A stretch of DNA of 64,000 bases from Candidatus Uhrbacteria bacterium (GCA_016188475.1 JACPHT010000007.1:80467-144466), one strand, 5' to 3'; shown: positions 6,538 to 61,883, numbered from the stretch's first letter. Notes: generated by a model not told the origin, from the letters alone. Program-made: numbers and translations.

Positions 6538-6603
6538 GATAATAGTATAACAAAAATCCGGCTGTTCAGCAGTTCGCTGATACAGCCGGTGAGTTGATAG
6601 TCG

Positions 6604-45400: not shown

Positions 45401-48400
45401 TCGCCCTGCGACTTGCAACCTTGCCAGAACTCATCGATCGGATCTTTGGGTAATGTTGAACCAACCGCGTTTGATAAAACCGCGTTCCATGATTCCCATT
45501 TGCTTACACTCATTGCAGGAACATACGTTCCTTGTTGAACTTCAGGATATCCTTCAACACATGATTCAGTTCCAGGACACTGTGAGTCTGTTGAGCAACC
45601 TTGATTTTTTGTAACTGAACAATGTTTGTTTTGTGATCCATATTTGTTCAAAGCGGAAATTGTTGTTGTGATATCTGTCAATCTCTGCATGTCGTTTTGT
45701 AATTTTGATTTGTCATTATCACAAAACGCATTCTTAGCTGACGCGAGTGGACATTCAGCCGCTGACGCTGGTTTATTTTTTGTGATTGTACACTCATCGT
45801 TCTCAAACGTTTCCAAACATTCTCCATCCCAAGCGCAGTTTATAAAATCTCCTTCATCATTTTGTACATAAGAATTTCCGATCTTGCACAAACCAACATT
45901 ACTCACCTCTGTTGTGTTCGCGTTAAATTTCCAGTGATCAAAAATCTGCGCAAAAATTTCTTTGGCATCAGCTCCGGCGTTTGGATTATATGAAACAACG
46001 TAAATGTTTGGATAAATTACATTTCCATTTTTGTTCGCGGCAGTAATATAAGCTGTGTTTCCTGATTGAATAGCTTGATATCCGTCTATTTCTAATTCCT
46101 TGTAAGTTCCAGTAAATTTTTGCGACTCAAACCAAGCTATTGGTGAAAGATAATTTGGATTTTGAAACACGCGCACACCAATCGCGTCAGGAGTGCCTTG
46201 TACTTTGAAGAAAAGTTCTTGTAAAAGTCCGGCAGTCGCGACAGAAGTTACATCAACCGGATCAGCAAGCGAAGGAAGATCATCTGTTGTTCCATCTAAG
46301 CCGCGATCTCTACAATAATAGAAACCAAAGTTAGATGGTTTTGTTGGGTCTGTTTTTTCAATGTATGGAAATCCGAGTGTGGAATTCAAAGCAGGCCATG
46401 GATTTTCGCAAACAAGAGCCGTAACCTCAAGCGATCCCGATGTCTGCTTTCCAGATGTTGTTGGAACATTAAATGTGTCTTTGTTAATTTTCGCAGTCGC
46501 TATTACATGTTCAAGTCCATTATTGCCGACAGATGAAAATTTTGACTTTTCAAGTTTACCGATATCGCCATTTGCAAGATCAACTATATTTTCGGACTTG
46601 CCAGTTGCGTATGAAGAACCCCAATCCCAAGTCCACGAGTAACTTAATGTTGTGTTGATCGGCTCATAAACTCCGAGCCCGTCGCGATATGTTAAAGCCT
46701 GCGCTTCAAACTCGTGCGTTTCATCTTTCTTTGAAAAGAAACCTGAACTTGCTGATTCATATTGTTGTTTATTGACTTTTCCGTTGTCTGCAACACTCAC
46801 TGAATCAAGCAAACATACTTGTGATCCGATTTTGAATTGATTTGTTGTTGAACCGAATTCGCACGTATTTCCAATACACAAACCAACTCCGTTTTCGCTT
46901 AAAACTCCAAAAGGTGTTCCGTCTGAAGTGTTTTTGTCACCGACAATTATTAGCTGATATTCTGAATCTTTTTCCAAAAGATCGTTGTATTCAAGCACGA
47001 TTTTTTGACCGCCGGATATGTCAACGGTTTTGAAAGTCACAGGCGCAAGACATTTATTCCCAGCGGCTGAAACATCTTTTCCAAACAAATTCCAAAATCC
47101 ATTTTTCAAAACACTCCAAATTTTCGCAAACAAGCCTGAAGGCGCTTCTCCGCTTGTTACAAATTGATAGTTCGACGGACAAAGAGACGGGTTGGCATAA
47201 ATGTACTTTCCGTTTTTTGCAAACAGCTCAAGTCTGATATTTGAAATTTCTCCGTTGTCAATCTTTCCATTGTTGTTTTTGTCAACAGCGCCAAATGTTT
47301 TTGGATCCATTTTCTGATCAAACTGAACTGACACTGCTGTGTTTCGACAATATCCCTGATTTCCTGGACCGTTTCCAGACGGCGGTTGATAAGGCGGTTT
47401 CTTCTTCGGACGCACAAAACAACAACTTCCTGATCCGCATCCGAGCTTTGTTGTATCTCCGCACGCCTGATCCGACTCGCACGAACAATCAACTTTCAAA
47501 GTCGCGTCACCTTTCACATTTTCTGCTTCAGCGGTGATAGTCGAAACAGCATAACCTGTTGTTTTATCAACTTCTTTTGGGGCATTGTTGTTGATTTGCG
47601 CCGCGGCATATCCGCCTATCGCAAGCGACTGACCGGCTGATACATCACATTCTTCGCTAGTTTGAATTTTACCATCGCCGCAAAATGACGGAGGGTCATA
47701 TTGCGCTGACGCGCCTTCATTCAAACACTTGGCGTTGCAACCATCGCCGGATTTATTATTGCCGTCATCGCACTCCTCTCCTTTTCCAATCTTGCTATCG
47801 CTACAAAATGACGGGGTTCCGTACTCTAATGAAGCGCCTTCGTCAAGACATTTTTCACTGCATCCGTCTCCTGAAACCGCATTGCCATCATCACAGTCTT
47901 CTCCAGATTCGACTTTTGAATTTCCGCATTTTGAAAAAACATTTTCTTTCGCGATCGCACCTTCAAACAAACATTGGCTTGAACAACCGTCACCGTTTTT
48001 TGTATTTCCGTCATCACAATCTTCACCTCCTGTTTGAGGTGAAAAGTCAACGGTTCCATCTCCACAAGTTGCGCCAACTGAAGACGAACCATTATTTAAA
48101 CATGTCGAGCCGCATCCGTCGCCTGAAACAGTATTCCCGTCATCGCATTGTTCTCCAGCGTCAACAATTTTATTTCCGCAAGTTAAAGACGATCCTTCTT
48201 TCAAACAACTTGAGGAACATCCGTCTCCAGAGTTTGTATTTTTGTCATCGCATTCTTCAGCTTCATTTTTTCCATCTCCGTTGTAATCGACAATTCCATC
48301 TCCGCAAACCGCTTGCGTGTGTTTAATTGTTGCGCCAGCATTCAAGCATTGCGATGTACACCACTCTGGAAGCGACGTTGCAAGTTCGATTGCTCCATTT

Positions 48401-51400
48401 TGCAACATAAACGCCACATCCTGCGCTGTTCCTCCTTGAGCGGCTTTATAATTGTCAGGAGTGTCTTTTGATGTCCACGCGTTCCAAGTGTAACTTGAAT
48501 TCTGTAAAGCCTGTCCGGAAGCGTCGCAATCATCTGGCGCGCCGTAAGTTGTCGCGTTGTATTCTTGTTTTTGTCCGACGTAATTTAATGTTTTCAAATC
48601 TGGAGAAACATTGATTGAATCAATACCGCAACTTATATCAGAATTTTTTGTTTTGAATTTCCACGAAAAATCCGTGCCATAATTCGCGCCAGAATCTTTT
48701 AACGGAACATTGGAAGTTGACTTGATTGAAGAACCATTCAAAACAATTCGATACCATGTGTTCGCGGCCATTACTGAACCTGCTTTATAATCAACAAACA
48801 AAGTTTTGGTTTCTTTGTTGTAAGTAACGTTTTGAATCAAATCTGTTTTTTTAAGCTCATTCGCCTCGCAAATAGAATCTTCACACTCATAAAGCGTTAC
48901 CGCAGAAGCTGCAACAGTTGATGGATCAATATCTGTATTGAAACGCGCCCAAGGCTGTGCGTTCACGCAAGCTGTTGAACAATTTGGGAAAAACGCGTCA
49001 ACTTTTGGATCGCTAAAATCGATTTTCAAATCTCCAGTATCCTTTGGTTTATTTACGGCGTTTGTAACTTCAGCTTTAATCTTTGCAGGATTTCCTTTTG
49101 TCTCTTCTGTTGCTTTAACTTTTGAAGAACACAGTGCAGTGCCAACTGTCGGGTCTTGCACGGTTGCGCCAGGAAAATTTGATGACCAATCGATTGTTTG
49201 TCCATCGCATGAAATTGTGAGACATTGATGCTCTTTAGAAATTAACTGCGATGTGTAACCAACACTTTGATCGTCAACTGTTGCTGTAAAATCTGCTGGT
49301 GAAACATTCACTCCGCCGACTTCGCACAATTCATTTTGACCTGCTGTTCTGAAATCCCAAACATAATCCTTTTCCATGAACGCGCCGCCAACAGCATCAC
49401 TCGCGCGCACTCCGCCCTGACCTCCTTTCACAGTCACTTTGATATAAGCCGCTTGAGGAAGCAATTCCGAAGGTGTCCATGTAAACGCTATTTCGTCCGT
49501 CATTAACGAACCGTCGAGTTTTTGCCATGCTTTACAACTTCCATCAGATTTTTCCTCATTACATTTTTCAACAACAATGTTATCCGGCAATGACGTCTGA
49601 TCCATTTGTTTTGTAAATGCCGCAGTAACAACCGCGTTCAAACAAACCGATGACGAACCTTCCCAGTTTTTCCACGGACTTGGAGAAATTGTTTTATCAT
49701 CGCATGCGACTTTTATTGTTGGAGCTTCTGGAATTAAACCGGTTGAAACGCGATACGCAAAATGTGATTCTTTTGGCTTAAGACTGCAATCAGCTTGATT
49801 TGATTTACACGAACCATCATCGCAACAGAATGTGTTGGTCGGACAAGCAAAATTATTTTGACAATCTCCAACAGCAAAATTTACAGAGTTCGAAGTGTAA
49901 CCGGCTTGAGTTGTTGCGAAAACCGGCCCTGTTTTTGCTTGCGCTGGAACCAAAGCATCGGTCACTTTTGTATTTTCCCAAATGATGTAACCGGCTGATT
50001 GTTTGTCAAAAAATGTAACTGTTCCATCTTTAGTTCCCAAATTTTCTCCATAAGCTGTTACAAGTGTTTCAACAGGACCTGCAACAGGATCAAGTTTACA
50101 AACCGCAGGACCTGGAGCGCCGTCAACAATTACAAAATCAACACCGTTTGAAACCTCACCATCTTGACGTTTTAGCGAAAGTTTATATGCGCCAAAGACA
50201 ATTTGATCTCCAAATTCATTCGCGATTTGAAATTCTTCCGGAACTTTTACGATAACTGATGTGTTGTTCCAAAATTGATTGCCGCATTGCGCTGGAAATT
50301 GCGTGTCTCCAAGAGCCAACTTTCCAAGACCGCTTGTAAAATTCACTTGACCTTTCGATGTTCCAAAATCAGTTCCATAAATTGTCACGTATTGTCCGGC
50401 TGGTCCCCAATTTGGCGCTGATTCGCATTTCCCTCCTCCACACGTGTCGTCTTTCGCGCAGACTTTTCCATTGTTCACTCCACCACTACACGCTTTCCAA
50501 CCAGTTTCGACGTATGAAATGTTTGGTTTGGTTTCTGCTTTTGCGGAATCTAAAACAGCAAACGCAAGTTTGTTCGATCCAACACGAACTGAAACGCATT
50601 TTCCGTCTCCTTCAGCGCAAACTTTATTCGCAGAACAATACGCCAGTGTTTCACTGCACCAAGAAGTCGCGCACGAGTTCCCTGCTCCGCAATCACTATC
50701 TTGCGCACACAATTTTCCAGTTTCCTTTCCAACTGCGTCAATACATCGATAATCTCCGGTGAACGCTTGTGTGCTTACATTGCCAGATGACATGTTTGGC
50801 ACAACAGCCTTAACTTGTGTGTCAAGCCAAGCTGAATATCCAGCTGAAAGAAAATCTTTGAAATAAATGACTGACGACCCTTGCTTTGCTCCAAGTCCAA
50901 GTCCAGAAAAAGTTGTTCCTGTCGCGCTCTCGCCTTTTACAGGATCAACATCGCAAAGTCCCGGACGTTTCACAGCGTTTACATCAAAATCAGACGATAG
51001 CGGACCAAACGCATCGTTTGTTTTATCTTTTTTAACATCAGGTCCGGCTGTTGCAACTTCAATCGGCCCATCTTTTGCTCCAACTGGAAGTTGAACAACA
51101 ATCTCTTTGTCGCTCCATTTTGTTTTTCCATTGCAAGAATAAGCAGAAACACTCTTGCTTTCTTCAGGTTTGGATCCAAGAAATGTTATGTTTCCTCCAA
51201 CAGCGCCAAATCCCAAACCTTTGATTGTTACTAAACTTCCGATAGCGCCATCGCCCGGTGAAACAGAATCAATGCGAGGTTTGCTTACACAAACTTCATT
51301 TTCACACACAAGTCCTGGCGAGCATTCTGCTGTTTGTCCACACGTATCTGCCACACATTTGCCGCAATAAAAAACATTTGTTGGATCACCACCGCAGTTC

Positions 51401-52581
51401 ACTCCTGTTTCACCAAATTCTTCGTCAATCTCTGTATTGTCACAGTTTGCGGCTTTAACAACAGCTGAAATTTTTGTTGCTGTTGCTTTGTTGCCTGCGC
51501 AATCAAACGCAGAAGCCCAAAGAGGATAACTTTTGTTTGTAACGTATCCGATTGTGTCCCATTCAACATTCTCGTCTGTTGAAAAAATGTTTACCGTGTT
51601 GTTTCCAACAAGTTTTTGACTGGTTGACAGATCAAGTCCTGATGAATAAAGCGCTTCATCATCACTTACTGAGTAAAAATCTACACTTGAAACTCCTGTG
51701 TCGTCTTTTGTTTCGGCTTGCAAAATCTGAATCGTTCCAACAATAACGGATTGTCCATTCGTTGGAGTTTTCATGCTGATTGTCGGACCTTTTACATCAA
51801 CTCCATCGCCTGTTGTGAAAGAAAATTCATTCAGATTTCCAAACGTACTAAGTTCTGCGCCACTTGTTGACTTAAGAGCGGAATTGATCTTAAGCTCATA
51901 TTCCGTGTTTGCTGCAAAGCAATGCGATGTTGTATTTGGCGCCGGACAAAAAGCGGCTGGAGTGAATTTGACCACGCTTCCTTTTGTTGCAAAAGTTCCA
52001 TCAACCGCGTTTCCACCTTTTTGTTTGATTGTAATTCCTTCTGAAATTGTTGAAGCATTAACGTTCTTTGAAAAAACAAGTTGGAGCTGAAGATTTCGAA
52101 TAGCACTCGCGCATTCTGTATTAACTGAATTGAGTTTGAACGAGGAAAGTGTCCCGTTGTCTGGATACGAACCTCCGCCTCCGCCTGTCCCTGTTGTAAC
52201 ACCCACTCCTGTTGTTTCAATAAGTTTGCCAATAATAAATTGGACTATTCCAAATGATGCCAAAACAATTATCAGTCCAACAATCGCCTGGCTTAAAATC
52301 TTTTTTGCTGTTTCAAGCCGTTTTGTGTTGCCGGCAGAGGTCATGTATAAAAATCCAGCGTAAACAATCATGGCAACCGCAATTATTCCAACAAAACTTA
52401 TTGCTGTTCTGATCAATCGAGCGATGATGAGCTGAATCGAAGGACCTGTTGCAAATCCGGCGTTTTGCGCGAACTCTTTCAAATCAACTCCTTGAGCAAA
52501 AACAGGAACAGCAACAATGAGCCCAACGCTCACAAGCGCGAGAATAAAACCTGACAGAAATGATTTATATTGATGTTTCAT
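42430..52581 (-). CDS. giant (3,383 aa) surface protein: VirB2/TrbC-pilin-like two-helix N-terminus, Ig-like/IPT regions, 6+ tandem Myxococcus-type cysteine-rich repeats (CGDG..ECDDGN..GDGCS..C), C-terminal vWA domain
   Basis: Uninterrupted 10.15-kb ORF. Repeats CGDGIVDYNGDGKNEAEECDDKNTNSGDGCSSSCL x6. vWA with DLTGT...LTGSAIQ...LLADGEAN. N-terminal LIIARLIRTAISFVGIIAVAMIVYAGFLYMTS. Confidence 0.85.
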   Translation of the reverse strand: MKHQYKSFLSGFILALVSVGLIVAVPVFAQGVDLKEFAQNAGFATGPSIQLIIARLIRTAISFVGIIAVAMIVYAGFLYMTSAGNTKRLETAKKILSQAIVGLIIVLASFGIVQFIIGKLIETTGVGVTTGTGGGGGSYPDNGTLSSFKLNSVNTECASAIRNLQLQLVFSKNVNASTISEGITIKQKGGNAVDGTFATKGSVVKFTPAAFCPAPNTTSHCFAANTEYELKINSALKSTSGAELSTFGNLNEFSFTTGDGVDVKGPTISMKTPTNGQSVIVGTIQILQAETKDDTGVSSVDFYSVSDDEALYSSGLDLSTSQKLVGNNTVNIFSTDENVEWDTIGYVTNKSYPLWASAFDCAGNKATATKISAVVKAANCDNTEIDEEFGETGVNCGGDPTNVFYCGKCVADTCGQTAECSPGLVCENEVCVSKPRIDSVSPGDGAIGSLVTIKGLGFGAVGGNITFLGSKPEESKSVSAYSCNGKTKWSDKEIVVQLPVGAKDGPIEVATAGPDVKKDKTNDAFGPLSSDFDVNAVKRPGLCDVDPVKGESATGTTFSGLGLGAKQGSSVIYFKDFLSAGYSAWLDTQVKAVVPNMSSGNVSTQAFTGDYRCIDAVGKETGKLCAQDSDCGAGNSCATSWCSETLAYCSANKVCAEGDGKCVSVRVGSNKLAFAVLDSAKAETKPNISYVETGWKACSGGVNNGKVCAKDDTCGGGKCESAPNWGPAGQYVTIYGTDFGTSKGQVNFTSGLGKLALGDTQFPAQCGNQFWNNTSVIVKVPEEFQIANEFGDQIVFGAYKLSLKRQDGEVSNGVDFVIVDGAPGPAVCKLDPVAGPVETLVTAYGENLGTKDGTVTFFDKQSAGYIIWENTKVTDALVPAQAKTGPVFATTQAGYTSNSVNFAVGDCQNNFACPTNTFCCDDGSCKSNQADCSLKPKESHFAYRVSTGLIPEAPTIKVACDDKTISPSPWKNWEGSSSVCLNAVVTAAFTKQMDQTSLPDNIVVEKCNEEKSDGSCKAWQKLDGSLMTDEIAFTWTPSELLPQAAYIKVTVKGGQGGVRASDAVGGAFMEKDYVWDFRTAGQNELCEVGGVNVSPADFTATVDDQSVGYTSQLISKEHQCLTISCDGQTIDWSSNFPGATVQDPTVGTALCSSKVKATEETKGNPAKIKAEVTNAVNKPKDTGDLKIDFSDPKVDAFFPNCSTACVNAQPWARFNTDIDPSTVAASAVTLYECEDSICEANELKKTDLIQNVTYNKETKTLFVDYKAGSVMAANTWYRIVLNGSSIKSTSNVPLKDSGANYGTDFSWKFKTKNSDISCGIDSINVSPDLKTLNYVGQKQEYNATTYGAPDDCDASGQALQNSSYTWNAWTSKDTPDNYKAAQGGTAQDVAFMLQNGAIELATSLPEWCTSQCLNAGATIKHTQAVCGDGIVDYNGDGKNEAEECDDKNTNSGDGCSSSCLKEGSSLTCGNKIVDAGEQCDDGNTVSGDGCGSTCLNNGSSSVGATCGDGTVDFSPQTGGEDCDDGNTKNGDGCSSQCLFEGAIAKENVFSKCGNSKVESGEDCDDGNAVSGDGCSEKCLDEGASLEYGTPSFCSDSKIGKGEECDDGNNKSGDGCNAKCLNEGASAQYDPPSFCGDGKIQTSEECDVSAGQSLAIGGYAAAQINNNAPKEVDKTTGYAVSTITAEAENVKGDATLKVDCSCESDQACGDTTKLGCGSGSCCFVRPKKKPPYQPPSGNGPGNQGYCRNTAVSVQFDQKMDPKTFGAVDKNNNGKIDNGEISNIRLELFAKNGKYIYANPSLCPSNYQFVTSGEAPSGLFAKIWSVLKNGFWNLFGKDVSAAGNKCLAPVTFKTVDISGGQKIVLEYNDLLEKDSEYQLIIVGDKNTSDGTPFGVLSENGVGLCIGNTCEFGSTTNQFKIGSQVCLLDSVSVADNGKVNKQQYESASSGFFSKKDETHEFEAQALTYRDGLGVYEPINTTLSYSWTWDWGSSYATGKSENIVDLANGDIGKLEKSKFSSVGNNGLEHVIATAKINKDTFNVPTTSGKQTSGSLEVTALVCENPWPALNSTLGFPYIEKTDPTKPSNFGFYYCRDRGLDGTTDDLPSLADPVDVTSVATAGLLQELFFKVQGTPDAIGVRVFQNPNYLSPIAWFESQKFTGTYKELEIDGYQAIQSGNTAYITAANKNGNVIYPNIYVVSYNPNAGADAKEIFAQIFDHWKFNANTTEVSNVGLCKIGNSYVQNDEGDFINCAWDGECLETFENDECTITKNKPASAAECPLASAKNAFCDNDKSKLQNDMQRLTDITTTISALNKYGSQNKHCSVTKNQGCSTDSQCPGTESCVEGYPEVQQGTYVPAMSVSKWESWNAVLSNAVGSTLPKDPIDEFWQGCKSQGEGFDPLTCFNGLQGKFVCPKGSHVYGYQNKYGEKYKLFTQLEYGDSPWNFAIDQFDTDDVTVVAEYLSGLAAVPKGFVSNPLFCADTASWGISAVCGDGVVGQNETCEPGQVKAEYLSDGYVNVSCKDDCSNYQTVAEAQAAGSPKIDFACGNGVLEGSEICDDGAQNGTYGHCGSDCTFTKAFLCGDGYLAGGEQCDCGSIENFASLGNQSWAKINSCESSNGQYGDDPGKTCTYDCKQPGLSCGDKIVNGPEECDGGSQQWAGKLCTDNKTTCETDSDCPSGACGGGNQKQACGSSKVCVEAKDVGKQCGNNNQCESGKCNNSKCLGVDDIGTPCSNNAQCGSKKCSDFTYELTRTRVCKNDCSWPGFSSCQGGDQVCGNGKIEGTEECDDGNKSNNDSCTNGCKKNFCGDEYVYSGVEACDNGIDNVGPNDLNPCEASYDNTCNYCNWQCQYKTLSGSYCGDGIKNGNEFCDGNDQPYWCFNYDTGAEPVKAGNCSKSDALKLGPTGACSAGYTCQYLGVCNGGANNGKPCTLQPPNKTPAEYNASANKFVCGTDSQCVAPVCASDCSGSCPFTLKKTGILVQSELSGAQPLPSVDLYSYFNKEKLSPDNAVLLLPACSVGTKITANIDNSNVTEPNIDIVFVTDLTGTMKLGPDGKSASAPNRRIDIVTEAAKQAIDDLYDAYQGTDGKIRIGLVTYGYGVDYNHNVQDDVIALHPELETSLVPNNPGNKETLKNIIDTYKDNFGGWTLTGSAIQKAIKILDEQSAPENQKFVILLADGEANHALGDYSKYPPEKAIINDNDDKLKCNKMIGDNKKNYNKEDGIWVPYEGTEACIAEARYADGMIFDHIKSGDITFYSAVISDNTTQIAYMEHLSSLKCAGKEMADKNDCTEGNFAYQATTADGIKGMYNKIIESVLESKTTVTATKGTESSSETSITPVGQNVELPLPETFACQNKQTLMPIQTIFNGTGTMNFSNITFEYCPVP

Positions 52582-52665: not shown

Positions 52666-54471
52666 TCACTTTACATTCCCCGGCAATGTGCCCGGTTCAT
52701 ACAATGTCTTACACGCGACAGCAGACGGCGATCCATTACAACAATACGGTTTACTTGAATTTGTTCCGTCACACGCGCCGCCAACTTGCATTGAAGGATA
52801 CATACAAATTTGATACGCGCTTTTTAGACCGTTTGTTACAACAGGATAATAATCATATCCGCCTTCAGCATTGCTTATAAAAGCAGGATGTCCAATTAGC
52901 ACTTTGGTTGTTTTTGCGTCAACATTATCTTCCTTATTTGATGAAAACCACATTGAATAAAGTGGATCCGGCCAAACAGAAACATTTGAACTATTCACAG
53001 TCGAGCCTTTCAGAAGTGTGCTGAATGCAATTTCAAGCGGTGCGTTTTGATCAATCTCTTGACCTCCAATTTCAGGTTTTAACGAAACAATTTTTGGAAC
53101 AGTGTCATTGATCGCGTCTGTTGTGTTGAACGACCAAGAGTAATTATCATTCAAAGCATTGTTTGCGCAAACTGCCAAATCTTTTTCTGATCCACAAGCT
53201 TTCCCATCTCCATTTCCATCAAGCGAATTTCCTGACGCGTCAGTCAATCCATCATATGAAACTCCAATAAGTTGCGCTTGCGGGGGATTGGAATTATCTA
53301 GTGTCGCCGCCTTGCCAGTGACACTCAAATCAGCGGTTGCTGGCAAGCAATAAATCACATCACCGCAGGGATCTTTTGAACACGCGTCAGTGCTTGTAAA
53401 CCCAACTGTTTTGTATCCATTGCTAATTTCATATGTTCCCTGAACATTTCCGGCAACATCTTTTTGAGTAATCGCGATGTTTGTAAATAATGGATTTTTT
53501 TCATCAATATAAGAACCTGTTGAAGACACTGGGTCCATTGCTTCATTGAATGTCATTTCTACAGTCACATTACGCGGTTCTTCTGACGAATTATTTGGAA
53601 TCACAGAAACAACTTTTGGCGGAGTGAGATCGATTTCTGTTGAAACCTCAAACGTCCATCCATATCCGGAGGAATAAGCTCCAACAAAAGCATTTGAGCC
53701 GTTTGCTTTTTTGATTCCTGGTTGAAGCGCGACAGTATAATTCGTGTCCGATGTTGGATTGCCAAGAAGATCAACGGGATCAAAAACGTAAATTGTATTC
53801 TGTTCGTTTGTCACAACTTTTACAGCATCCGTCCCGAGTTTTTTGTCTTTTCCTTTTGCTGTTTCAAAAATATAGACATTCGTGTTGTTAAGTCCGCTCT
53901 CGCCAGAAATGATGGATTTTGGATCTACGGCTTCTTTGAATGTAACGAAAATTTTTGTATTGCGAGGAATTTCAACCGCGTTGCGGGGAGGATAATGGCT
54001 TTCGACAATTCCTGCGCCAAGCGCGCCGGCAAGCGGTTCTTTATATTTTTCAATTACAGCCTTTGAAACAATCTGACCGGAAGTCGCGCCCAAAATCGCA
54101 TTTATGACAAACAACGCGATCGCGTATGAAGAAAAAATAATTAAAACTCCGATTGTTGCCTGAGTGATGATTTTTTTCGCCTTTTCCGTTTTTCCTGCTT
54201 CGCCTTGCGAAGTCATGTACAAAAATCCGGCGTACAGAACAAGAAGAACAAAAATGATTCCTAAAATTCCAAGAAAAGCGCGAATTAAACGCGCGATTAT
54301 TAGGATAATGTTTGTTTGTGGCAAACCAGATGCTTCGGCAGAAGTTTGAAGAAAATCCGTTTGCGCAAAAACAGGATGAGCAAGTCCGAAGAAAACAAAA
54401 ACGCACAGCACGCCAAAGCCTGCCGCGTAAACGGCAAATGAACGCAAGTATGTCCGACTATTATCGGTCAT
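52666..54471 (-). CDS. 601-aa surface protein, paralog of the giant protein N-terminus (pilin-like two-helix module + Ig-like domains)
   Basis: N-terminal IILIIARLIRAFLGILGIIFVLLVLYAGFLYMTSQGEAGKTEKAKKI parallels the giant protein. Confidence 0.8.
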   Translation of the reverse strand: MTDNSRTYLRSFAVYAAGFGVLCVFVFFGLAHPVFAQTDFLQTSAEASGLPQTNIILIIARLIRAFLGILGIIFVLLVLYAGFLYMTSQGEAGKTEKAKKIITQATIGVLIIFSSYAIALFVINAILGATSGQIVSKAVIEKYKEPLAGALGAGIVESHYPPRNAVEIPRNTKIFVTFKEAVDPKSIISGESGLNNTNVYIFETAKGKDKKLGTDAVKVVTNEQNTIYVFDPVDLLGNPTSDTNYTVALQPGIKKANGSNAFVGAYSSGYGWTFEVSTEIDLTPPKVVSVIPNNSSEEPRNVTVEMTFNEAMDPVSSTGSYIDEKNPLFTNIAITQKDVAGNVQGTYEISNGYKTVGFTSTDACSKDPCGDVIYCLPATADLSVTGKAATLDNSNPPQAQLIGVSYDGLTDASGNSLDGNGDGKACGSEKDLAVCANNALNDNYSWSFNTTDAINDTVPKIVSLKPEIGGQEIDQNAPLEIAFSTLLKGSTVNSSNVSVWPDPLYSMWFSSNKEDNVDAKTTKVLIGHPAFISNAEGGYDYYPVVTNGLKSAYQICMYPSMQVGGACDGTNSSKPYCCNGSPSAVACKTLYEPGTLPGNVK

Positions 54472-54510
54472 GACGAAAAGGGTGAAGTTGTGTATACATT
54501 TTAGCGTATT

Positions 54511-55551
54511 TTACAAAGAGATAATAGGAAGAGTGTGGATAGACGTTAACTTTTGTTTCAATTTTTTTGCGTTTCCATGACCTAACAGTCCAAAATAAGA
54601 TTGAAACGTTTCTTTTGTTGGATGCGACTCAATTCTCTGTAACATCCGTCGTCTTGTTACTGTTCGTAATGTTCGATGATCCGTAAAATGAACCCAACCG
54701 AGAAAATCAACGCCGGAGGTAAAAGTCTTCAAAAAAATCTTGTTTGGATGAAGTGTTAAATGAAGATCAAACAGTAAAAAGGAACGTATTGCTGGAATCA
54801 AAGACTTGAGAGATGTTTTGTCATCAGAGAGAAAAACAAAATCATCAGCATAACGAACATAGTGTTTGATATGAAGTTTGTGTTTCACAAATTGATCAAA
54901 CTGATTCATATAGATATTTGAAAAAAGTTGTGATGTGAGATTGCCAAGCGGAAGTCCGATATTCCGCTTATTTTTTGTTTCAAAACTTCCGATGATTTTT
55001 TCAAGAAGCCATATGATGTTTTTGTCTGGGATATACTCTCCAAGGATACGAATCAAAATTCTGTGATCAATACTCCAAAAAAATTGTTTAATATCGCATT
55101 TCAAGACCCAACACGTTCGAGTGTGATTCTGACTAACTTGATAAGCAAAAGCCCGAAATCTGTCGACCGCTTTATGTACTCCCTTCTCGTTTCGACATGA
55201 AAATGAATCGCTTATGAATGTCTTATCGAAAAACGAATACAATATGCGATATAATGCCCGATGTAATGTGCGATCTCGTACTGACGCTTTGTGAATTAAA
55301 CGACGTTTTGGATCTGTGATGACAAATGATTCGTATTTTGAATGTCTGTATGTCTTGTTTTTCAAATCTCTATGTAAATCCAGAAGATTATCCATCAAAT
55401 ACAACTCGAACTCCTGTATGTCTTTTCTTGACCGCTTACCAACAACAAATTCACTCCAAGCACAAAGTAAATTCTCTATCGATATTATCTCTTCAAATGT
55501 ATGATCGAACAAAATTTTGGACACGCAACTAAGTGTACCCCCCCCCCCCAA
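54511..55551 (-). CDS. diversity-generating retroelement (DGR) reverse transcriptase
   Basis: RT motifs with the DGR-diagnostic LPLGNLTSQLFSNIYMN (I/LGxxxSQ) and VRYADDFVFL. N-terminal LFDHTFEEIISIENLLCAWSEFVVGKRSR. ORF-track start is TTG inside a C12 tract; the GTG at 55524 is an alternative. Confidence 0.85.
   Translation of the reverse strand: MGGGGTLSCVSKILFDHTFEEIISIENLLCAWSEFVVGKRSRKDIQEFELYLMDNLLDLHRDLKNKTYRHSKYESFVITDPKRRLIHKASVRDRTLHRALYRILYSFFDKTFISDSFSCRNEKGVHKAVDRFRAFAYQVSQNHTRTCWVLKCDIKQFFWSIDHRILIRILGEYIPDKNIIWLLEKIIGSFETKNKRNIGLPLGNLTSQLFSNIYMNQFDQFVKHKLHIKHYVRYADDFVFLSDDKTSLKSLIPAIRSFLLFDLHLTLHPNKIFLKTFTSGVDFLGWVHFTDHRTLRTVTRRRMLQRIESHPTKETFQSYFGLLGHGNAKKLKQKLTSIHTLPIISL
55538..55549. 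repeat. C12 homopolymer (G12 on the minus strand) at the 5' end of the RT ORF, in the RT/avd divergent region
   Basis: cccccccccccc read directly from the sequence. Confidence 0.9.
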
Positions 55552-55593
55552 CGATTTTTACCGGTTTTAAGTAAAGTCAAGGAGTCGTACCTT

Positions 55594-55920
55594 TTGTGGT
55601 ACAAATTTTATCAGGACTTACCCAAAGTACATCGTCATTCTCTCGGTCAGCGCATTGATACTTTATTTGTTGAAGTGATTGAAGCGATATCGGCCGCCAG
55701 TTTTCTCTCACCGGCGGAGAAACATCCGTATGTTCGTCTCGCGATCAAAAAAGCGGACACCTTGCGCGTACTTCTTTTGGTGCTTTGGGAAACGAAATCT
55801 CTTGATGACAAAAAATACATTGCTCTTTCCGTAAAGTTGGACGAAGCCGGAAAAATGCTTGGCGGTTGGAACGGCCAGCTCGCAAAACAAAACTCTCCAG
55901 CGAAAGCCGGAGAGAAATGA
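55594..55920 (+). CDS. candidate DGR accessory variability determinant (Avd-like four-helix-bundle protein), divergent from the RT
   Basis: TTG start 9 nt after a perfect SD aaggag. LPKVHRHSLGQRIDTLFVEVIEAI resembles the bAvd / four-helix-bundle family (FPKEE.YGLTSQIRRA.VSIPSNI). Basic, 109 aa. The opposite-strand orientation is unusual. Confidence 0.45.
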   Translation: MWYKFYQDLPKVHRHSLGQRIDTLFVEVIEAISAASFLSPAEKHPYVRLAIKKADTLRVLLLVLWETKSLDDKKYIALSVKLDEAGKMLGGWNGQLAKQNSPAKAGEK

Positions 55921-55926
55921 AGAGAG

Positions 55927-56059
55927 TTGCGACACGGCGAACGCGAACCCGTTGTCACGATTCCACCTGTTGTCAGGCCTGTCGTTGTACGCGTTGAGCC
56001 AGCGACCATCGTCGTTACGGTTCGCGTTCAGCAAGTTCGGATCGCCGTCGGATTGCGCG
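55927..56059 (-). repeat. DGR template repeat (TR)
   Basis: 133 bp matching VR (56399-56531). All 14 internal mismatches are at minus-strand adenines. The minus-strand frame is AAC-rich (LNANRNDDGRWLNAYNDRPDNRWNRDNGFAFAV). Confidence 0.85.
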
Positions 56060-56300
56060 AAACATCTTCCATATCACCACCCCTCGAATACTCTCAGGGT
56101 TGAATCGAATCCGGCATTGCAATGCCTTAATGTCTCGCGCCAAGTATCTTCTTTTTTATTGAAGTTTCTGCATGCACCACTCTATCCGAAACCATGGCCG
56201 CGGATACTCTCGATGCATGGATACTGGGGTCGGTAGCGGAAAGCCTTAACCGTCCGCATATTCACCTACTGCCACGAATATTATAGCCGATTTTATATTT

Positions 56301-56344
56301 TATGAAAAAATTTAGCCCTGCTCCGACGGATCGGAACAGGGCTA
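56301..56344 (-). terminator. terminator of the DGR target gene (tagccctg-17 nt loop-cagggcta + T-run on minus strand)
   Basis: 8-bp stem with an internally palindromic loop. Lies about 60 bp downstream of the stop codon. Confidence 0.6.
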
Positions 56345-56359
56345 AGGGCTAAGTTCAAA

Positions 56360-56373
56360 GGGACAGAAGTCCC
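56360..56373 (-). other. small GC hairpin (gggac-agaa-gtccc) ~25 bp 3' of VR, candidate DGR homing-enhancing hairpin
   Basis: 5-bp GC stem with a 4-nt loop just past the invariant VR 3' end. Analogous in position to the hairpin/cruciform described for the Bordetella phage DGR. Confidence 0.3.
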
Positions 56374-56398
56374 GAGTATCTTAGTGTTGAGAACTGAC

Positions 56399-56531
56399 TT
56401 GCTACACGGCGAACGCGAACCCGTGGGCACGATTCCACCTGTCGGCAGGCCTGCCGTCGCACGCGCTGAGCCAGCGACCATCGCCGTAACGGTCCGCGCT
56501 CAGCAAGTCCGGAGCGCCGTCGGAGTCGTTG
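56399..56531 (-). repeat. DGR variable repeat (VR) at the 3' end of the target gene
   Basis: Encodes ...LSADRYGDGRWLSACDGRPADRWNRAHGFAFAV*. The 3' 25 nt (cacggcgaacgcgaaccc) has no adenine on the coding strand and is identical to TR (IMH-like). Confidence 0.85.
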
Positions 56532-57016
56532 ATGGGTTCGTGCATTGCGACGATCCACCACAGACCCATGGCTTCGATCTCCTTGTCCGTGAACTTCTCA
56601 CGGATGAGGCAGGCCAGTTCGGCGTTCGGCTTCGAGAGCTTGCGCTTGTCGGCCTCGGCGCGAATCTTCTTCGTGATCCGGTCGTTGCCCTCGAAGAGCA
56701 TGCCCTTGAGAACGGCGACTTCGGTCGTCACGCCGCTCGTCGGCTTGAAGTCCGGCGAACGGAGCACTTGCTTGGCGTAGTCGCCCACGCGGAAGCCTTT
56801 GCTCTCGAGTCGGGTGATCCAGTCCTCGCCGGTCGTGCCATCGCTGGTGACCGAGAAGTAGAGGACGCCGTCTTCCTCGCGCCACGAACGGATCGGTTCG
56901 GAAACCGAGAGTTCGTCGCGGAGAAAACGGAGCGCCATGTAATGGCCACCGAGCTTCTTCACGATGGCATTCAGTTGGCCGGCAGTGAGGTCGGAGGATG
57001 CGAATTCTTTGCTCAT
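56402..57016 (-). CDS. DGR target protein (204 aa) with C-type-lectin/FGE-like variable C-terminus; no signal peptide detected
   Basis: Strong SD aaggagac. C-terminal GLWW...DGRW...RWNR..GFAFAV matches the CLec-fold VR pattern. GC about 62%. Confidence 0.8.
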   Translation of the reverse strand: MSKEFASSDLTAGQLNAIVKKLGGHYMALRFLRDELSVSEPIRSWREEDGVLYFSVTSDGTTGEDWITRLESKGFRVGDYAKQVLRSPDFKPTSGVTTEVAVLKGMLFEGNDRITKKIRAEADKRKLSKPNAELACLIREKFTDKEIEAMGLWWIVAMHEPINDSDGAPDLLSADRYGDGRWLSACDGRPADRWNRAHGFAFAV

Positions 57017-57255
57017 GATTTTGTCTCCTTGGGCTAATTTGCCCGTTTCGTTTTCCTCTAATCCGAGGAGGAACCATGGCCAGTGTGGTCACAGCCAGAA
57101 ACCCTGAACAAAGTTGAAGGGCTTTTGACTATGACCATTCGCAAGACTTATCAAAGAACTAGGCTTCCAACTTTACATCAAAATGCCACTTTTGTCAATA
57201 GTTTAGCATGTTTTTGATCAATTTTTACTACTTTTATTAACACATTCTGCTTTCT

Positions 57256-58014
57256 TTACATCACTTTAATAACAACAGTTGAAACACCATACAGCAAAAC
57301 AACTGCGATTGATCCGATAAACCCTGTCATGATTTTTTGCCAAGCTTTTACATGCGACTCATCACGCATAGAAGAAATCATATAACTAAACCCACCGTGT
57401 AAAATCATATTAACAGCTAAAATTCCAAACAAAAGTAGCAAGACTCTAAAAATGCGAACTCCGGTTTCTAAAAATGAATATGCTTGAAGTGAAACTGGAA
57501 CAATTTCAATTGCGGCAAATGCTGGAAAAGCAATTCCGACTCCGACGATCATCAAAACAAACACAGCAAGCAAAGATTCAACGATTTGTTTTACTCGTGT
57601 TCCATCAGCGCGACCCTGCACGACTTTCATAGCCATTCCCATTGCCTTCCCCATGTCTTGTTTGCTTGTTACACCTGATTCTTCAACTACTTTTTTCACG
57701 ATTGATGTGAGTTCATCATCAGAAATTTGTTTTGGCAAATATGCTTCAAGAACAGCAATCTCTATTCGAGCTTGAGAAGCTAAATCCTCTCGCTTTGCGC
57801 TTTCATACGAATCAAGTCCGTCGCGCAACTGTTTCACTTGCGATCGAATCACACCCAAAATTTCTTCATCTGATAATTCATGTTGAACATCAATTTGTTT
57901 GTTTTTCATTGCAGAACGCAATAAACGCAACGTTGAAAGCGTTGCGTTGTTTTTGCTTTTCATTGCGTCTTTCATCGCGTTTGTGATTTGGTCAGAAAGA
58001 GACATAGAACCCAT
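57256..58014 (-). CDS. yqeY: GatB/YqeY-domain protein fused to a C-terminal two-helix VirB2/TrbC-pilin-like membrane module
   Basis: N-terminal 150 aa is YqeY-like (downstream of rpsU as in Firmicutes). C-terminal IFRVLLLLFGILAVNMILHGGFSYMISS parallels the N-terminal modules of the 42430 and 52666 proteins. Confidence 0.65.
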   Translation of the reverse strand: MGSMSLSDQITNAMKDAMKSKNNATLSTLRLLRSAMKNKQIDVQHELSDEEILGVIRSQVKQLRDGLDSYESAKREDLASQARIEIAVLEAYLPKQISDDELTSIVKKVVEESGVTSKQDMGKAMGMAMKVVQGRADGTRVKQIVESLLAVFVLMIVGVGIAFPAFAAIEIVPVSLQAYSFLETGVRIFRVLLLLFGILAVNMILHGGFSYMISSMRDESHVKAWQKIMTGFIGSIAVVLLYGVSTVVIKVM

Positions 58015-58050
58015 GATGTCAAATTACTAGTGAATGACTAATGACAAAAA

Positions 58051-58126
58051 TTTATCTCCTGAGCCTGTCGAAGGAATAAATTTTAGAACAGTTCATCTTT
58101 ATCCCTTCGACAAGCTCAGGGAATAA
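58051..58126. mobile_element. MITE-like element family A
   Basis: tttatctcctgagcctgtcgaagg ... cccttcgacaagctcagggaataa. Confidence 0.75.
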
Positions 58127-58149
58127 CGACGTTTCGTTTGACATTCTAT

Positions 58150-58395
58150 TTATCTCCCCCTTGATGGCTGACGAACTTCTTCCTTGAGTTGTCCAATGCG
58201 TGCCAGATATTCGCGTTTTTCTCGAATCTCAATTCGTCGTAAAGCGCTTTCGCGTTGTTTATTCTTGTTTGGTTTTGAAGCACGATAGCGAAGTTTGCGC
58301 ACTTCAAGCTGTTTGCCGCTCTGTTGCAAACGGCGGCTAAATCTGCGCAATAGACTTTCAAAGCTTTCACCTTTTTTTCGTTTCACGTCGACCAT
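58150..58395 (-). CDS. rpsU: ribosomal protein S21
   Basis: VKRKKGESFESLLRRFSRRLQQSG...RKLRYRASKPN. Start set at MVDV. Confidence 0.8.
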   Translation of the reverse strand: MVDVKRKKGESFESLLRRFSRRLQQSGKQLEVRKLRYRASKPNKNKQRESALRRIEIREKREYLARIGQLKEEVRQPSRGR

Positions 58396-58497
58396 ATAGT
58401 TAGAAGCTAGAAGCAAGAAGAAAGAAGTTAGAGAAGCTGAAGATTTAGAATTATGTTACGGCAAGATTATGCAGGATTTGGCTCATTTTTGTCAAGT

Positions 58498-59913
58498 CTA
58501 GCTGTCCGCGACTGGAGAATATCCTTCGGTTTTCACCCCTGGATCTTTTTGAAGTTTTCGTTCAACAACAGAAACGATCTTCTTCACATCAATTGTTTCT
58601 TGAGCGCCGGATTCCATGTCGCGAATGATGATCGTCCCATCAAGCACTTCTTTTTGACCAAGAATAAGTGTGAACTGAACCCCAAGTTTGTTTGCGACTT
58701 CAAGTTGGGCTTTGAGAGCGTTTTTCCCAACCGCTTCTGAAACTATAATTCCGGATTTTCGAAATTCTTCAAACAATTTTAGACCAACGCGCCGCGCGGC
58801 ATCACCGAGTTGCGCAAAAAATACATGAGCTTTCTTGTACTGTGGAGGATCAATATTTTTATCAGAAAGCGCTCGAACAATTCGATCAATTCCAAGAGCA
58901 AAACCGCACGCAGGTGTTGGTCGCCCGCCAATTAGCTCAACAAGCCCGTCATATCGTCCACCTCCACCAAGGGCGTTTTGTGCTTTCTCGCCCTCATCAT
59001 CAGCAAGCGTAAACTCAAACACTGTGTGCGTGTAGTAATCCAAACCGCGAACCAAGTGCGAATTCAACACATACGGCATTTCAACTTCATCCAAAAATTC
59101 CAAAACTTTCATGAAATGTTCTTTTGATTTTTCATCAAGCCAATCAAGAATCTGCGGGGCATCTTTAAGAAGTTCGATCGTCTCCGGCTCTTTACTATCA
59201 AGCAGGCGCAAAGGATTTTTTTGAAGACGACGTTTGTCGTCTTCTGGAAGTCGGCTTCTGAATTGTCGAAAATACGATACAAGTTCGGCAAGATAAGCCT
59301 GACGACATTCAGGCGTTCCTATTGAGTTTATTTGAACCGAAACATCAAGCCCAAGAGTTTCAAAAATTTTCTTTCCAATCAAAATTAGCTGTGCGTCAAT
59401 GATTGGCTCACTGCTTCCAAAGACTTCAAAACCTACCTGATAAAACTGACGAAATCGTCCAGCTTGCGGACGATCGTGTCGAAACATCGGCCCTTCGTAC
59501 CAAAGTTTCACTGGCTGTGGACGCTCTATCATTCCATGTTCGATGTAAGCGCGAGCGGCCGAAGCAGTCGCCTCTGGACGAAGCGCGACAGAACGATTCG
59601 ATGGATCTGTAAAAACGTACATTTCTTTTTCAACAACATCTGTTCCTTTTCCAAGGGTGCGTAAAAACAAATCCGATCGTTCCAAAATCGGAAGATCAAT
59701 TCGATCAAAAGTGTAAGATTCCGCAAGTGAACGCATTGCGTCGCGAACAAAATTCCATCTTCCCTGCTCTTCCGGCATTATGTCGCGAAATCCGCGTAAT
59801 AATTCCGGAGCGCCTTTTGACGATTTTTTTGATTCATCTTCGTCGCCCTCCTCTGTTTCAGGTTTCTTGACCGGCGTTTGAACTGGTTTTGGTGTATTTT
59901 TTCTGAATGGCAT
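58498..59913 (-). CDS. hisS: histidyl-tRNA synthetase (class IIa) with ~40-aa basic N-terminal extension
   Basis: RGFRDIMPEE (motif 1 region), RPEATASAARAY, GRFRQFYQVGFEVFG (motif 2), GGGRYDGL (motif 3). Confidence 0.85.
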   Translation of the reverse strand: MPFRKNTPKPVQTPVKKPETEEGDEDESKKSSKGAPELLRGFRDIMPEEQGRWNFVRDAMRSLAESYTFDRIDLPILERSDLFLRTLGKGTDVVEKEMYVFTDPSNRSVALRPEATASAARAYIEHGMIERPQPVKLWYEGPMFRHDRPQAGRFRQFYQVGFEVFGSSEPIIDAQLILIGKKIFETLGLDVSVQINSIGTPECRQAYLAELVSYFRQFRSRLPEDDKRRLQKNPLRLLDSKEPETIELLKDAPQILDWLDEKSKEHFMKVLEFLDEVEMPYVLNSHLVRGLDYYTHTVFEFTLADDEGEKAQNALGGGGRYDGLVELIGGRPTPACGFALGIDRIVRALSDKNIDPPQYKKAHVFFAQLGDAARRVGLKLFEEFRKSGIIVSEAVGKNALKAQLEVANKLGVQFTLILGQKEVLDGTIIIRDMESGAQETIDVKKIVSVVERKLQKDPGVKTEGYSPVADS

Positions 59914-61795: not shown

Positions 61796-61829
61796 TGTTA
61801 TTTTGAAATAGTCGTTCGGTCGTGCTGGC

Positions 61830-61883
61830 AGCGTCGCATTCACATTGCGAAGGTCGGAGGTTCAAGTCCTCCAACGTCCACCA
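61830..61883 (+). pseudogene. partial direct repeat of the tRNA-Val 3' two-thirds (anticodon arm to CCA)
   Basis: agcgtcgcattcacattgcgaaggtcggaggttcaagtcctccaacgtccacca is identical to tRNA positions 26-76. The 5' part is replaced, so it cannot fold as a tRNA. Confidence 0.75.

Follow-up and report, generated by a model that had tools for sequence, protein, structure and literature searches.

The 64,000-nt stretch of the Candidatus Uhrbacteria bacterium contig JACPHT010000007.1 analyzed here (GCA_016188475.1, 80467-144466; one strand, hereafter the window) harbors a set of genes and repeats with the organization of a diversity-generating retroelement (DGR). Four units are arranged on ~2.7 kb: a target gene, the last ~40 codons of which form the variable repeat (VR); a predicted non-coding RNA that carries the template repeat (TR); the accessory gene avd; and a gene encoding a reverse transcriptase (RT). 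The minus strand of the window is the coding strand of the target, the TR RNA and the RT, while avd sits inverted between TR and RT, convergent with the TR RNA and divergent from the RT gene (feature coordinates are compiled in Table 1). A previous reading of this DNA made from the sequence alone, here termed the sequence-only reading, had proposed a complete DGR at 54511-57016. The DGR interpretation is supported by the data presented below, i.e., an adenine-specific TR/VR pair, an RT similar to that of the Bordetella phage BPP-1 DGR (bRT), an Avd protein and a VR at the 3' end of the target gene. The term 'complete' is structurally justified, although avd, the structured TR RNA and the promoter and 5' untranslated region (5' UTR) of the target had been overlooked, the latter two, which reach to about 57200, falling outside of the proposed coordinates.

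A comparison set of 155 loci was compiled, comprising 75 genomic loci retrieved with the target as the seed and 80 metagenomic loci for which the RT served as the seed; where individual loci have to be told apart, they are referred to by an L number.

Template and variable repeats

A repeat search of the window returned a direct repeat of 134 nt with an offset of 472 and an identity of 87%, for which base-by-base comparison defined a core of 123 nt (55932-56054 in TR). The repeat which the sequence-only reading had placed at 55927-56059 is real, its range being a few bases too wide at both ends. TR and VR differ at 15 positions, and all 15 are adenines in TR (T on the plus strand), the substitutions being A>G in nine cases, A>C in five and A>T in one. 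As 30 of the 123 bases of the TR core are A, the probability of such a distribution arising by chance is 2.2e-11. Fourteen of the differences are internal, exactly as had been reported, and the fifteenth (56053) lies at the 5' edge of the repeat, outside of which four ordinary mismatches follow (56055-56058). The peptides assigned to the two copies, ...NANRNDDGRWLNAYNDRPDNRWNRDNGFAFAV for TR and ...SADRYGDGRWLSACDGRPADRWNRAHGFAFAV for VR, were likewise correct. The TR adenines occupy codon position 1 or 2 in 29 of 30 cases, eight of the TR codons are AAC, and none of its codons is able to mutate into a stop codon; up to 19 codons are recodable via these adenines, by which ~2e16 protein variants can be reached.

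The VR 3' end contains an 18-nt, GC-rich segment that is devoid of coding-strand A and identical in VR and TR, in agreement with its earlier description as invariant and A-free. TR and VR part just 3' of this segment (VR UAGCAAGUCAGUUC versus TR UCGCAACUCUCUUC). By analogy with phage BPP-1 (Wu et al., PMC5758913), the segment is a plausible candidate for an initiation of mutagenic homing (IMH) site, marking the 3' homing boundary. A non-adenine difference (G/T) is located at position 55931, where the TCG (Ser) codon of TR and of the homologs corresponds to a TAG stop codon in VR (56402-56404), and the target of the window consequently lacks the usual C-terminal tail SQVSSQH, being 204 aa in length as compared to 211 aa in homologs. 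Sliding-window comparison showed TR to be 100% identical to the TRs of L002, L005 and L008, while the VR positions are hypervariable throughout the homologs.

Reverse transcriptase and Avd

The longest RT open reading frame (ORF; 54511-55551) opens at a TTG (55551) within the G:C homopolymer described below; based on homolog alignment, translation most likely starts at GTG 55524 rather than at this TTG. Both motifs noted in the sequence-only reading are present: LGNLTSQ, an IGxxxSQ-type motif 4, aligns with bRT residues I181-Q187, and YADD aligns with Y213-D216. Among solved structures the best match is 8ub7_A (E=3.9e-37), which exceeds the matches to group II intron RTs (~1e-15) and retron RTs (~1e-5) by more than 20 orders of magnitude. 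The 8ub7_A chain is identified as the Bordetella phage DGR RT because the aligned residues I181, G182, Q187, D215 and D216 are bRT residues named by Handa et al. A PHROG RT family (phrog_1423) matches at 353 bits. The top NCBIfam match is group_II_RT_mat (TIGR04416; E=1e-40), at 139.9 bits against a cut-off of 300, and this model heads the list because no DGR RT model of NCBIfam matched; the retron and Drt models of NCBIfam all remained far under their cut-offs. PADLOC returned matches to many families of defense-associated RTs (DRTs), which score below its generic RT model, and no group II intron RNA or retron RNA was detected in Rfam scans of the window and of the element. The motifs and the closeness to bRT in sequence searches support assignment of the RT to the DGR clade.

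The plus-strand ORF at 55501-55920 is identified, by sequence comparison, as Avd (accessory variability determinant). It matches Pfam bAvd at 39.3-39.9 bits (cut-off 40), as do all 13 relatives tested, NCBIfam DivGenRetAVD at E=1e-15, which is under the cut-off of that model, and the PHROG 'Avd protein of DGR' at E=1.8e-15. The single sequence had no match in the PDB, while a profile of the Avd family (A8) ranked bAvd (4dwl) first among solved structures, albeit weakly (E=0.19). Its sole canonical in-frame start is ATG 55501, from which the frame is open and reads through the homopolymer; this ATG is in frame only because the tract is 12 nt long. A palindrome, GTACC-TTTTGT-GGTAC (55587-55602, plus strand), lies inside the 5' part of avd, upstream of the RT gene. 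Its sequence is retained by the most closely related cassettes, and it might serve as an operator-like site of a shared control region.

Target gene and protein

The target protein is identical to hypothetical protein HYV69_02600 of a Candidatus Uhrbacteria metagenome-assembled genome (MAG). It has no sequence match in Pfam, NCBIfam, PHROG, PADLOC or the PDB. An AlphaFold2 model, based on an alignment of 119 sequences, reached a predicted local distance difference test (pLDDT) score of 90.1, and the fold predicted for residues ~45-204 matches the C-type lectin (CLec)/formylglycine-generating enzyme (FGE) superfamily. A Foldseek search of this model against the PDB gave no significant match, although C-type lectin-like domains (CTLDs) dominate the list of results. 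A divergent CLec-like fold is therefore weakly supported by the predicted model; the C-type-lectin/FGE inference of the sequence-only reading is consistent with the model, but finds neither a significant Foldseek match nor a link at the sequence level. The predicted fold is akin to that of the CLec variable proteins TvpA (2y3c), Mtd (1yu0) and AvpA of Nanoarchaeota (PMC5006420), and, as in CLec variable proteins of DGRs, the VR forms C-terminal strands with the end motif ...W.R..GF.F. VR is thus located at the C-terminus of the target ORF, in a predicted variation-tolerant (CLec-like) fold, as is typical for a DGR.

The base composition of the target (62-63% GC) is set apart from that of the contig (~40%) and the RT gene (~35%), and the family is GC-rich, with a GC content at third codon positions (GC3) of ~0.8, in hosts of 29-58% GC. 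Divergent members of the family exhibit a lower GC3 (0.47-0.57), as expected for older residents. Adenine depletion was considered as the source of the high GC content and rejected, since the coding strand has an A content of 0.21 versus 0.17 for T. A phage origin of the target module is also unsupported, with no PHROG match and a single viral contig (IMG/VR) carrying a relative.

Residues 1-40 of the target (56897-57016) occur in unrelated, swapped versions (MSTEFASAGLTAGQLNAIVKKLGGH..., MKYPKMDWGTMEAVVNKLGGE..., ...KNIMRQTGEADPNEAVRLVNSGEW...) on one conserved core, which suggests, at the level of sequence, shuffling of N-terminal modules.

The target gene is preceded by a promoter-like site, the -35 box of which is the recurrent edge of a block conserved in more than 10 loci, and by a structured 5' UTR. 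In an alignment (A5) of 27 loci, including orphan copies lacking a DGR, 15 of the 30 predicted pairs of this 5' UTR exhibit compensatory changes, and its folding z-score is -3.5. An upstream UUCCUCC can pair with the GGAG Shine-Dalgarno (SD) sequence. There is no Rfam match to the 5' UTR at E<=1; it may represent a translational control element or a riboswitch-like leader. At the other end of the gene, a terminator hairpin marks approximately the point to which the homology shared with orphan copies extends, and, by analogy, this hairpin might also act like the homing-enhancing hairpin of BPP-1.

A structured RNA around the template repeat

TR appears, from conservation and predicted structure, to be part of a stand-alone non-coding RNA of ~390 nt, which comprises a leader of ~215 nt, the 123-nt TR, a linker and a hairpin with a U tract. 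Its promoter-like site directly follows the target terminator on the minus strand, and the TATAAT box is conserved in the corresponding alignment (A2). The leader is kept in all 26 TR-bearing loci, including loci whose proteins are only 55-65% identical. RNAalifold analysis of these 26 loci predicted 64 pairs, 38 of which show compensatory changes. A controlled count gave 39 compensated pairs, with 96.2% of cells paired as opposed to 36-51% with slid partners and 179 compensated cells as opposed to 21-34, while none of 500 shuffles reached any of the observed measures; furthermore, hairpin-sized insertions are located in loops. The leader ends in helix P9, the 3' strand of which stops 1 nt before TR. 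Enclosed by P9 are a short (5-bp) hairpin, 13 conserved single-stranded nt and a longer hairpin in which insertions vary; a conserved single strand comes after the longer hairpin.

A covariance model (R1) was constructed from the core of the leader RNA (119 positions). It scores 137 bits at 56041-56158 in the window, the best of all matches, and it matches 55 of the 80 RT-seeded loci, with no stray match in 428 kb. Each of these matches is on the same strand as the RT gene and precedes it by 520-660 nt. As the matches track the RT, the RNA belongs to the RT lineage and not to the target. Rfam returned no match in the element, either at the gathering threshold (whole window) or at E<=1 (55400-57300).

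Downstream of TR, a 9-bp tetraloop stem is located 18 nt past the repeat, behind a conserved 18-nt linker. This hairpin is found in 26 of 26 loci, with three covarying pairs, and together with the U tract it is a candidate for the end of the TR RNA and, by analogy, for an Avd-binding stem-loop. A strand in the linker, UCUUCAUUU, is conserved regardless of target family when sequences are anchored on the terminal hairpin, and it is complementary to a leader strand, AAAAGAAGA (AAAUGAAGA in most relatives). Pairing in the predicted leader/flank duplex amounts to 94%, with double changes at two pairs in the first locus set. Compensatory variants in RT-seeded loci comprise GAAGU:ACUUC, CUGAAGA:UCUUCAG, AAAUAAGC:GCUUAUUU and AAAGA:UCUUU, while the duplex contains a mismatch in some loci. 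The length of the best leader-to-flank complement was dropped as a statistic owing to the A/U-rich background (8.45 vs 7.6), and register-anchored inspection was used instead; many apparent long-range helices involving the U tract were discarded as G-U and A-U artefacts.

Table 1. Features of the element, with positions counted from the first letter of the window or, where an L number is given, of the respective locus
Feature	Position	Strand	Remarks
DGR RT	54511..55524	minus	337 aa from GTG 55524; Pfam RVT_1 E=2.6e-24; bRT E=3.9e-37
avd	55501..55920	plus	Family-matched part 55555-55917; opposite strand to target, TR and RT
C12/G12 homopolymer	55538..55549		Divergent avd/RT junction; C12 on plus; also mosaic breakpoint
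3' hairpin and U tract of TR RNA	55885..55914	minus	9 bp and tetraloop at 55893-55914; overlaps avd stop codon on the other strand
Flank strand UCUUCAUUU	55915..55923	minus	Between TR and 3' hairpin
TR	55932..56054	minus	123-nt core from base-by-base comparison with VR
TR RNA leader	56055..56272	minus	~215 nt; 5' hairpin domain, second hairpin domain, helix P9
Helix P9	56140-56129 with 56066-56055	minus	12 bp; abuts TR; covarying
Leader strand AAAAGAAGA	56147..56155	minus	AAAUGAAGA in most relatives; complementary to 55915-55923
TR RNA promoter-like site	56280..56308	minus	TTTTCA, 17 nt, TATAAT; TATAAT conserved in alignment A2
Target terminator	56312..56345	minus	15-bp hairpin, 4-nt loop, then AUUUUUU
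Target (variable protein) gene	56402..57016	minus	204 aa; GC 63%, GC3 0.81; TAG stop 7 codons early relative to homologs
VR	56404..56526	minus	123 nt; 3' end of target gene 56402-57016
IMH-like segment	56405..56422	minus	18 nt, GC-rich, no coding-strand A, identical in VR and TR
Target structured 5' UTR	57017..57165	minus	Long hairpin, second hairpin, third hairpin beside SD
Target promoter-like site	57170..57198	minus	TTGACA, 17 nt, TAAAGT; consensus scan 10/12 matches
Clade A downstream segment	L001:6510-6901; L005:~6500-6850; L002:3229-3637; L008:6886-7275		Conserved sequence

Relatives and mosaic history of the element

A word-indexed search returned 1964 homologs of the target, the best 120 of which are 81-100% identical and belong to many Patescibacteria classes, and an exhaustive search yielded 1828 clusters at 50% identity. 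Between Patescibacteria classes, the target protein retains 81-91% identity. The order target/VR, ~340 nt, TR, inverted avd and RT was observed in ~20 target-seeded loci and in 36 of 36 RT-seeded loci that extend far enough upstream. In 33 of the 35 RNA-bearing RT-seeded loci, the 110 nt that follow the leader RNA match a VR located 170-320 nt upstream of the RNA, and 542 of the 603 mismatches occur at TR adenines. A detectable homolog of the target of the window is present in only 7 of the 36 RT-seeded loci with the above gene order.

Four loci, L001, L002, L005 and L008 (clade A), share whole cassettes at ~90% identity, the RT among them (87-93%), although they come from different classes, e.g., Uhrbacteria and Wolfebacteria, which indicates horizontal spread as judged from sequence. 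Compared to these loci, the target core of the window is 92-94% identical at the protein level and 91-94% at the DNA level (differences at four-fold sites 0.11-0.17), and avd is 88-92% identical at the DNA level, while the RT is ~58-59% identical with saturated four-fold sites. The identity to clade A drops from ~0.9 to ~0.6 in a single 30-nt step at 55577-55547, i.e., at the homopolymer. Other breakpoints were observed in L003, L007 and L014. Based on these sequence comparisons, the copy in the window is a recombinant, in which a clade-A-like target-TR-avd block is joined at the G tract to a distant RT.

Past the stop codon of the RT gene, the clade A cassettes have another ~400 nt in common, a conserved and apparently non-coding segment that is absent from the window; in L008, an insertion of ~385 nt parts the RT from this segment. 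Ahead of its main cassette, L029 possesses a second TR-RNA/avd-like region (2324-3070) with a G8 run behind it, which may represent a partial second DGR module.

Approximately 35 loci contain the target with its 5' UTR and terminator, yet the 2-4 kb available downstream hold neither TR nor avd nor RT, and remnants of avd or RT were found in L006, L015, L020, L030 and L066. The VR positions of orphan copies are as variable as those of DGR-linked copies. In one genome that carries both a DGR-linked and a remote copy (L019 and L032), 18 of the 25 mismatches of the remote copy fall on TR adenines, and the IMH region contains changes at bases other than A. These sequence data are no more than suggestive of orphan copies being targets of a DGR in trans.

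A repeat tract at the avd/RT junction

The C12 tract at the junction of avd and the RT gene is the sole G/C run of at least 7 nt within the window. In 68 of 88 loci, a G tract (G7-G14) is found at the equivalent position, immediately in front of both the RT start and the conserved N-terminus of Avd. This position corresponds, e.g., to L003:1468, L063:1325, L001:5466 and L008:5470. Its length distribution peaks at G10 (G7, 2 loci; G8, 8; G9, 17; G10, 29; G11, 10; G12, 1; G14, 1; n=68). Three near-identical cassettes have a repeat instead of the G tract, namely (ATTG)7 in L001, (TTGG)10 in L008 and (GGTT)2 in L005.

Simple-sequence-repeat contingency loci underlie phase variation in Neisseria, Haemophilus and Campylobacter. 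The tract resembles such loci in that long G:C homopolymers or tetranucleotide repeats are placed at the 5' ends of two divergent genes, and in that repeat type and length vary between otherwise near-identical DGR cassettes. In contrast to contingency loci, the DGR tract is not as a rule part of the avd frame, and its lengths are narrowly distributed (G9-G11 in 56 of 68 loci). A frameshift switch of avd is not supported as a general rule, since an upstream ATG that is open through the tract was counted in 17 of 68 loci for the true frame, while the two control frames gave 28 and 34. Candidate roles for the tract are phase variation of a promoter or 5' UTR, a ribosome binding site-like element for the RT and a recombination joint. 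No paper linking DGRs to such repeat tracts was found in the literature searched.

Weighing of the DGR assignment and its alternatives

It is considered very probable (approximately 0.9) that the element is a DGR of the type found in the Candidate Phyla Radiation (CPR), with a small, cytoplasmic-looking target protein of C-type-lectin-like fold. Several points weigh against this assignment: the element is known here from a single assembled sequence; the non-adenine TCG to TAG change in VR shortens the target protein of the window by seven residues relative to homologs; Avd scores just under the curated cut-offs of Pfam and NCBIfam; the TTG start that follows the tract in many relatives is TTA in the window; the RT and the RNA/Avd module stem from lineages that are only ~58% identical at the RT, making their compatibility an assumption; and covariation of the leader-to-flank duplex is limited against a high A/U background (8.45 vs 7.6 for shuffled primers).

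It is conceivable, though in our estimation unlikely, that the DGR is structurally intact but silent or decaying, in which case the A-to-N differences would be a record of past activity. The early TAG in the VR tail, being due to a non-adenine change, would fit such decay, but it lies 3' of the putative GC-rich boundary, so that its repair by homing is not expected, and some homologs (L020 and L038) likewise have a short tail or none at all. Similarly, avd does not have the post-tract TTG start of many relatives, while its frame is open from ATG 55501, and the RT is heterologous to the RNA/Avd module, while its ORF is intact with all motifs present. Decay is common in the family, as illustrated by the ~35 target-only loci and the five loci with remnants; the RNA of the window, however, scores highest of all matches to the covariance model, and its TR is 100% identical to that of relatives.

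A very improbable explanation is that the GC-rich island and the break in identity at the homopolymer reflect an assembly chimera of the cassettes of two organisms. The source is a MAG, and a G12 tract between conserved flanks is a site that assemblers can mis-join, yet both cassette flanks are host-like in GC content, the yqeY/S21 side and the pilin-like side are also neighbors in L039, GC-rich targets in AT-rich contigs recur in 75 independent loci, and L003, L007 and L014 have breakpoints of their own. Finally, the notion of an RT from a different retroelement or defense system (group II intron, retron or DRT/unknown group RTs) beside a repeat that arose independently by partial duplication of a gene, for which the group_II_RT_mat match and the lower-scoring DRT matches might be cited, is effectively refuted by the sub-threshold score of that group II model, the far closer match to bRT, the lack of group II intron or retron RNA in the Rfam scans, the adenine-only mismatches next to an Avd gene, and 33 further loci combining RT, avd, RNA, TR and VR with A-specific mismatches.

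Proposed mechanism

In the RNA of BPP-1, the first element after TR is an Avd-binding stem-loop. Next come a primer strand, the last base of which is the priming adenosine, two nucleotides, and a strand pairing with the segment just upstream of TR ('cPRT Stop'); a short stem-loop containing adenosines, the single-stranded 'Thumb Ring' and a long stem-loop that binds bRT complete the order (Handa et al., bioRxiv 10.1101/2023.10.23.563531). The same authors described stems of ~9 bp with tetraloops just downstream of TR for 207 of 278 DGRs. Structure prediction places equivalent RNA elements around the TR of the window, i.e., a downstream stem-loop and an abutting or bridging duplex as in Handa et al. 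The order within the leader is AAA(U/A)GAAGA, six nucleotides, the 5' strand of P9, a 5-bp hairpin, a 13-nt single strand, a longer hairpin and a single strand, while the 9-bp tetraloop hairpin is the only one of the BPP-1 elements found downstream of TR.

By analogy, it is proposed with moderate confidence that the TR RNA scaffold is circularly permuted with respect to the BPP-1 RNA and that priming occurs in cis from the leader. Elements that in BPP-1 are downstream of TR, namely the priming strand, the stop helix, the short hairpin, a single-stranded segment like the 'Thumb Ring' and the RT-binding hairpin, would here be upstream, and the Avd-binding hairpin, doubling as terminator, would alone remain downstream. 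The cDNA would be primed in cis from leader adenosine A56147, paired beside the TR 3' flank, with the leader strand 56147..56155 acting as the primer side and 55915..55923 as its template-side partner. The homology of TR and VR fades at ...GCAA|CUCUCUUC, which fits initiation of cDNA synthesis beside the leader/flank duplex. As can be surmised from the BPP-1 mechanism, RT and Avd would bind the TR RNA and copy TR into cDNA, with misincorporation opposite the 30 template adenines, and the cDNA would then replace VR, the GC-rich A-free segment marking the 3' boundary. The outcome would be a protein in which up to 19 codons are recoded on the lectin-fold surface, corresponding to the ~2e16 variants mentioned above.

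A broader and tentative proposal, to which we attach somewhat less than even odds, is that this lineage uses a permuted, stand-alone template RNA cis-primed at A56147, and that a hypermutable G:C tract might both gate expression of the machinery and serve as the joint of exchanged RT and target-TR-avd modules.

Genomic neighborhood

Directly downstream of the RT gene, the minus strand encodes a 601-aa protein (52666-54471) with an N-terminus resembling type IV secretion system (T4SS) pilins and with Big_5 domains, followed by a giant protein of 3383 aa (42430-52581, minus), which has numerous Cys-rich repeats and resembles its neighbor in its hydrophobic N-terminus; both are probably surface- or pilus-associated. 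A YqeY/GatB-like protein (57256-58014, minus) has a hydrophobic C-terminal extension of ~100 residues beyond the YqeY profile (143 positions, residues 8-149). L039 possesses the same hisS, S21, yqeY and pilin-like neighborhood as the window (52666-59913), with the cassette located in the hisS-S21 gap in L039 and between yqeY and the pilin-like gene in the window, a difference which, on gene order, would reflect independent insertions or a local move. A weak Rfam tRNA match (35 bits, 63 nt) at 61818-61880 (plus), right after tRNA-Val, was not called by ARAGORN and may be a degenerate or truncated tRNA.

Implications and comparison with known systems

The analysis assigns programmed hypervariability to hypothetical protein HYV69_02600, which is a useful annotation and one that is expected given the enrichment of DGRs in Patescibacteria. 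The element itself is an ordinary CPR DGR; what the comparison adds is the leader RNA family, the lineage-wide repeat tract and the modular, horizontally exchanged target-TR-avd units. The leader constitutes a large, covariation-supported RNA family outside Rfam, which marks TR in this DGR lineage regardless of the target and is usable as a TR detector. It also lends itself to testing which RNA elements known from the BPP-1 ribonucleoprotein are universal, and whether the order in which they follow each other matters, and is as such relevant to the reprogramming of DGRs for directed evolution. Target, TR and Avd travel as a GC-rich module, which moves from one Patescibacteria class to another and recombines with the RTs already resident there, and many genomes keep the target without a nearby DGR, which changes the reading of target-RT co-evolution and of 'orphan' variable proteins. 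The leader RNA, the G tract and the GC-rich target module are not described in the CPR DGR literature searched, although an earlier report by Paul et al. in 2017, reportedly the first survey of CPR/DPANN DGRs, is possible.

A variant order and orientation of avd and TR, designated architecture B3, accounts for 90% of CPR DGRs according to the accessible text of Wu et al. (2018, PMC5758913), and the inverted avd between TR and RT probably corresponds to this architecture as it is defined there. CPR DGRs have been shown to form a cellular clade (clade 2), the targets of which are devoid of recognizable domains or transmembrane segments (Roux et al. 2021, PMC8144416). Given the probable B3 layout and the cellular clade, the element belongs to a known type of DGR. 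It shares with CPR/DPANN DGRs its Patescibacteria host (Candidatus Uhrbacteria), the cellular context, the variant avd/TR order and a domain-less target, and none of its features excludes membership.

The element shares with the prototypic BPP-1 DGR (mtd-avd-TR-brt), for which the bRT-Avd-RNA complex has been solved by cryo-EM (PDB 8ub7 series), the adenine-specific flow of information from TR to VR, a bRT-like RT (IGxxxSQ, YxDD), an Avd-family protein, a VR at the 3' end of a target with a predicted lectin fold, a putative GC-rich boundary segment, a tetraloop stem-loop right after TR and a helix abutting the TR 5' end. It differs from the BPP-1 DGR in that its avd is inverted and placed between TR and RT, and in that its TR RNA is apparently a separate transcript with its own promoter and terminator. 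Furthermore, only ~40 nt follow TR, as compared to a 140-nt spacer (Sp) region in BPP-1, while a structured RNA of ~215 nt without an Rfam family match precedes it. Finally, the context of the element is chromosomal rather than phage-borne, and its target is devoid of Mtd-like trimer or tail-fibre domains.

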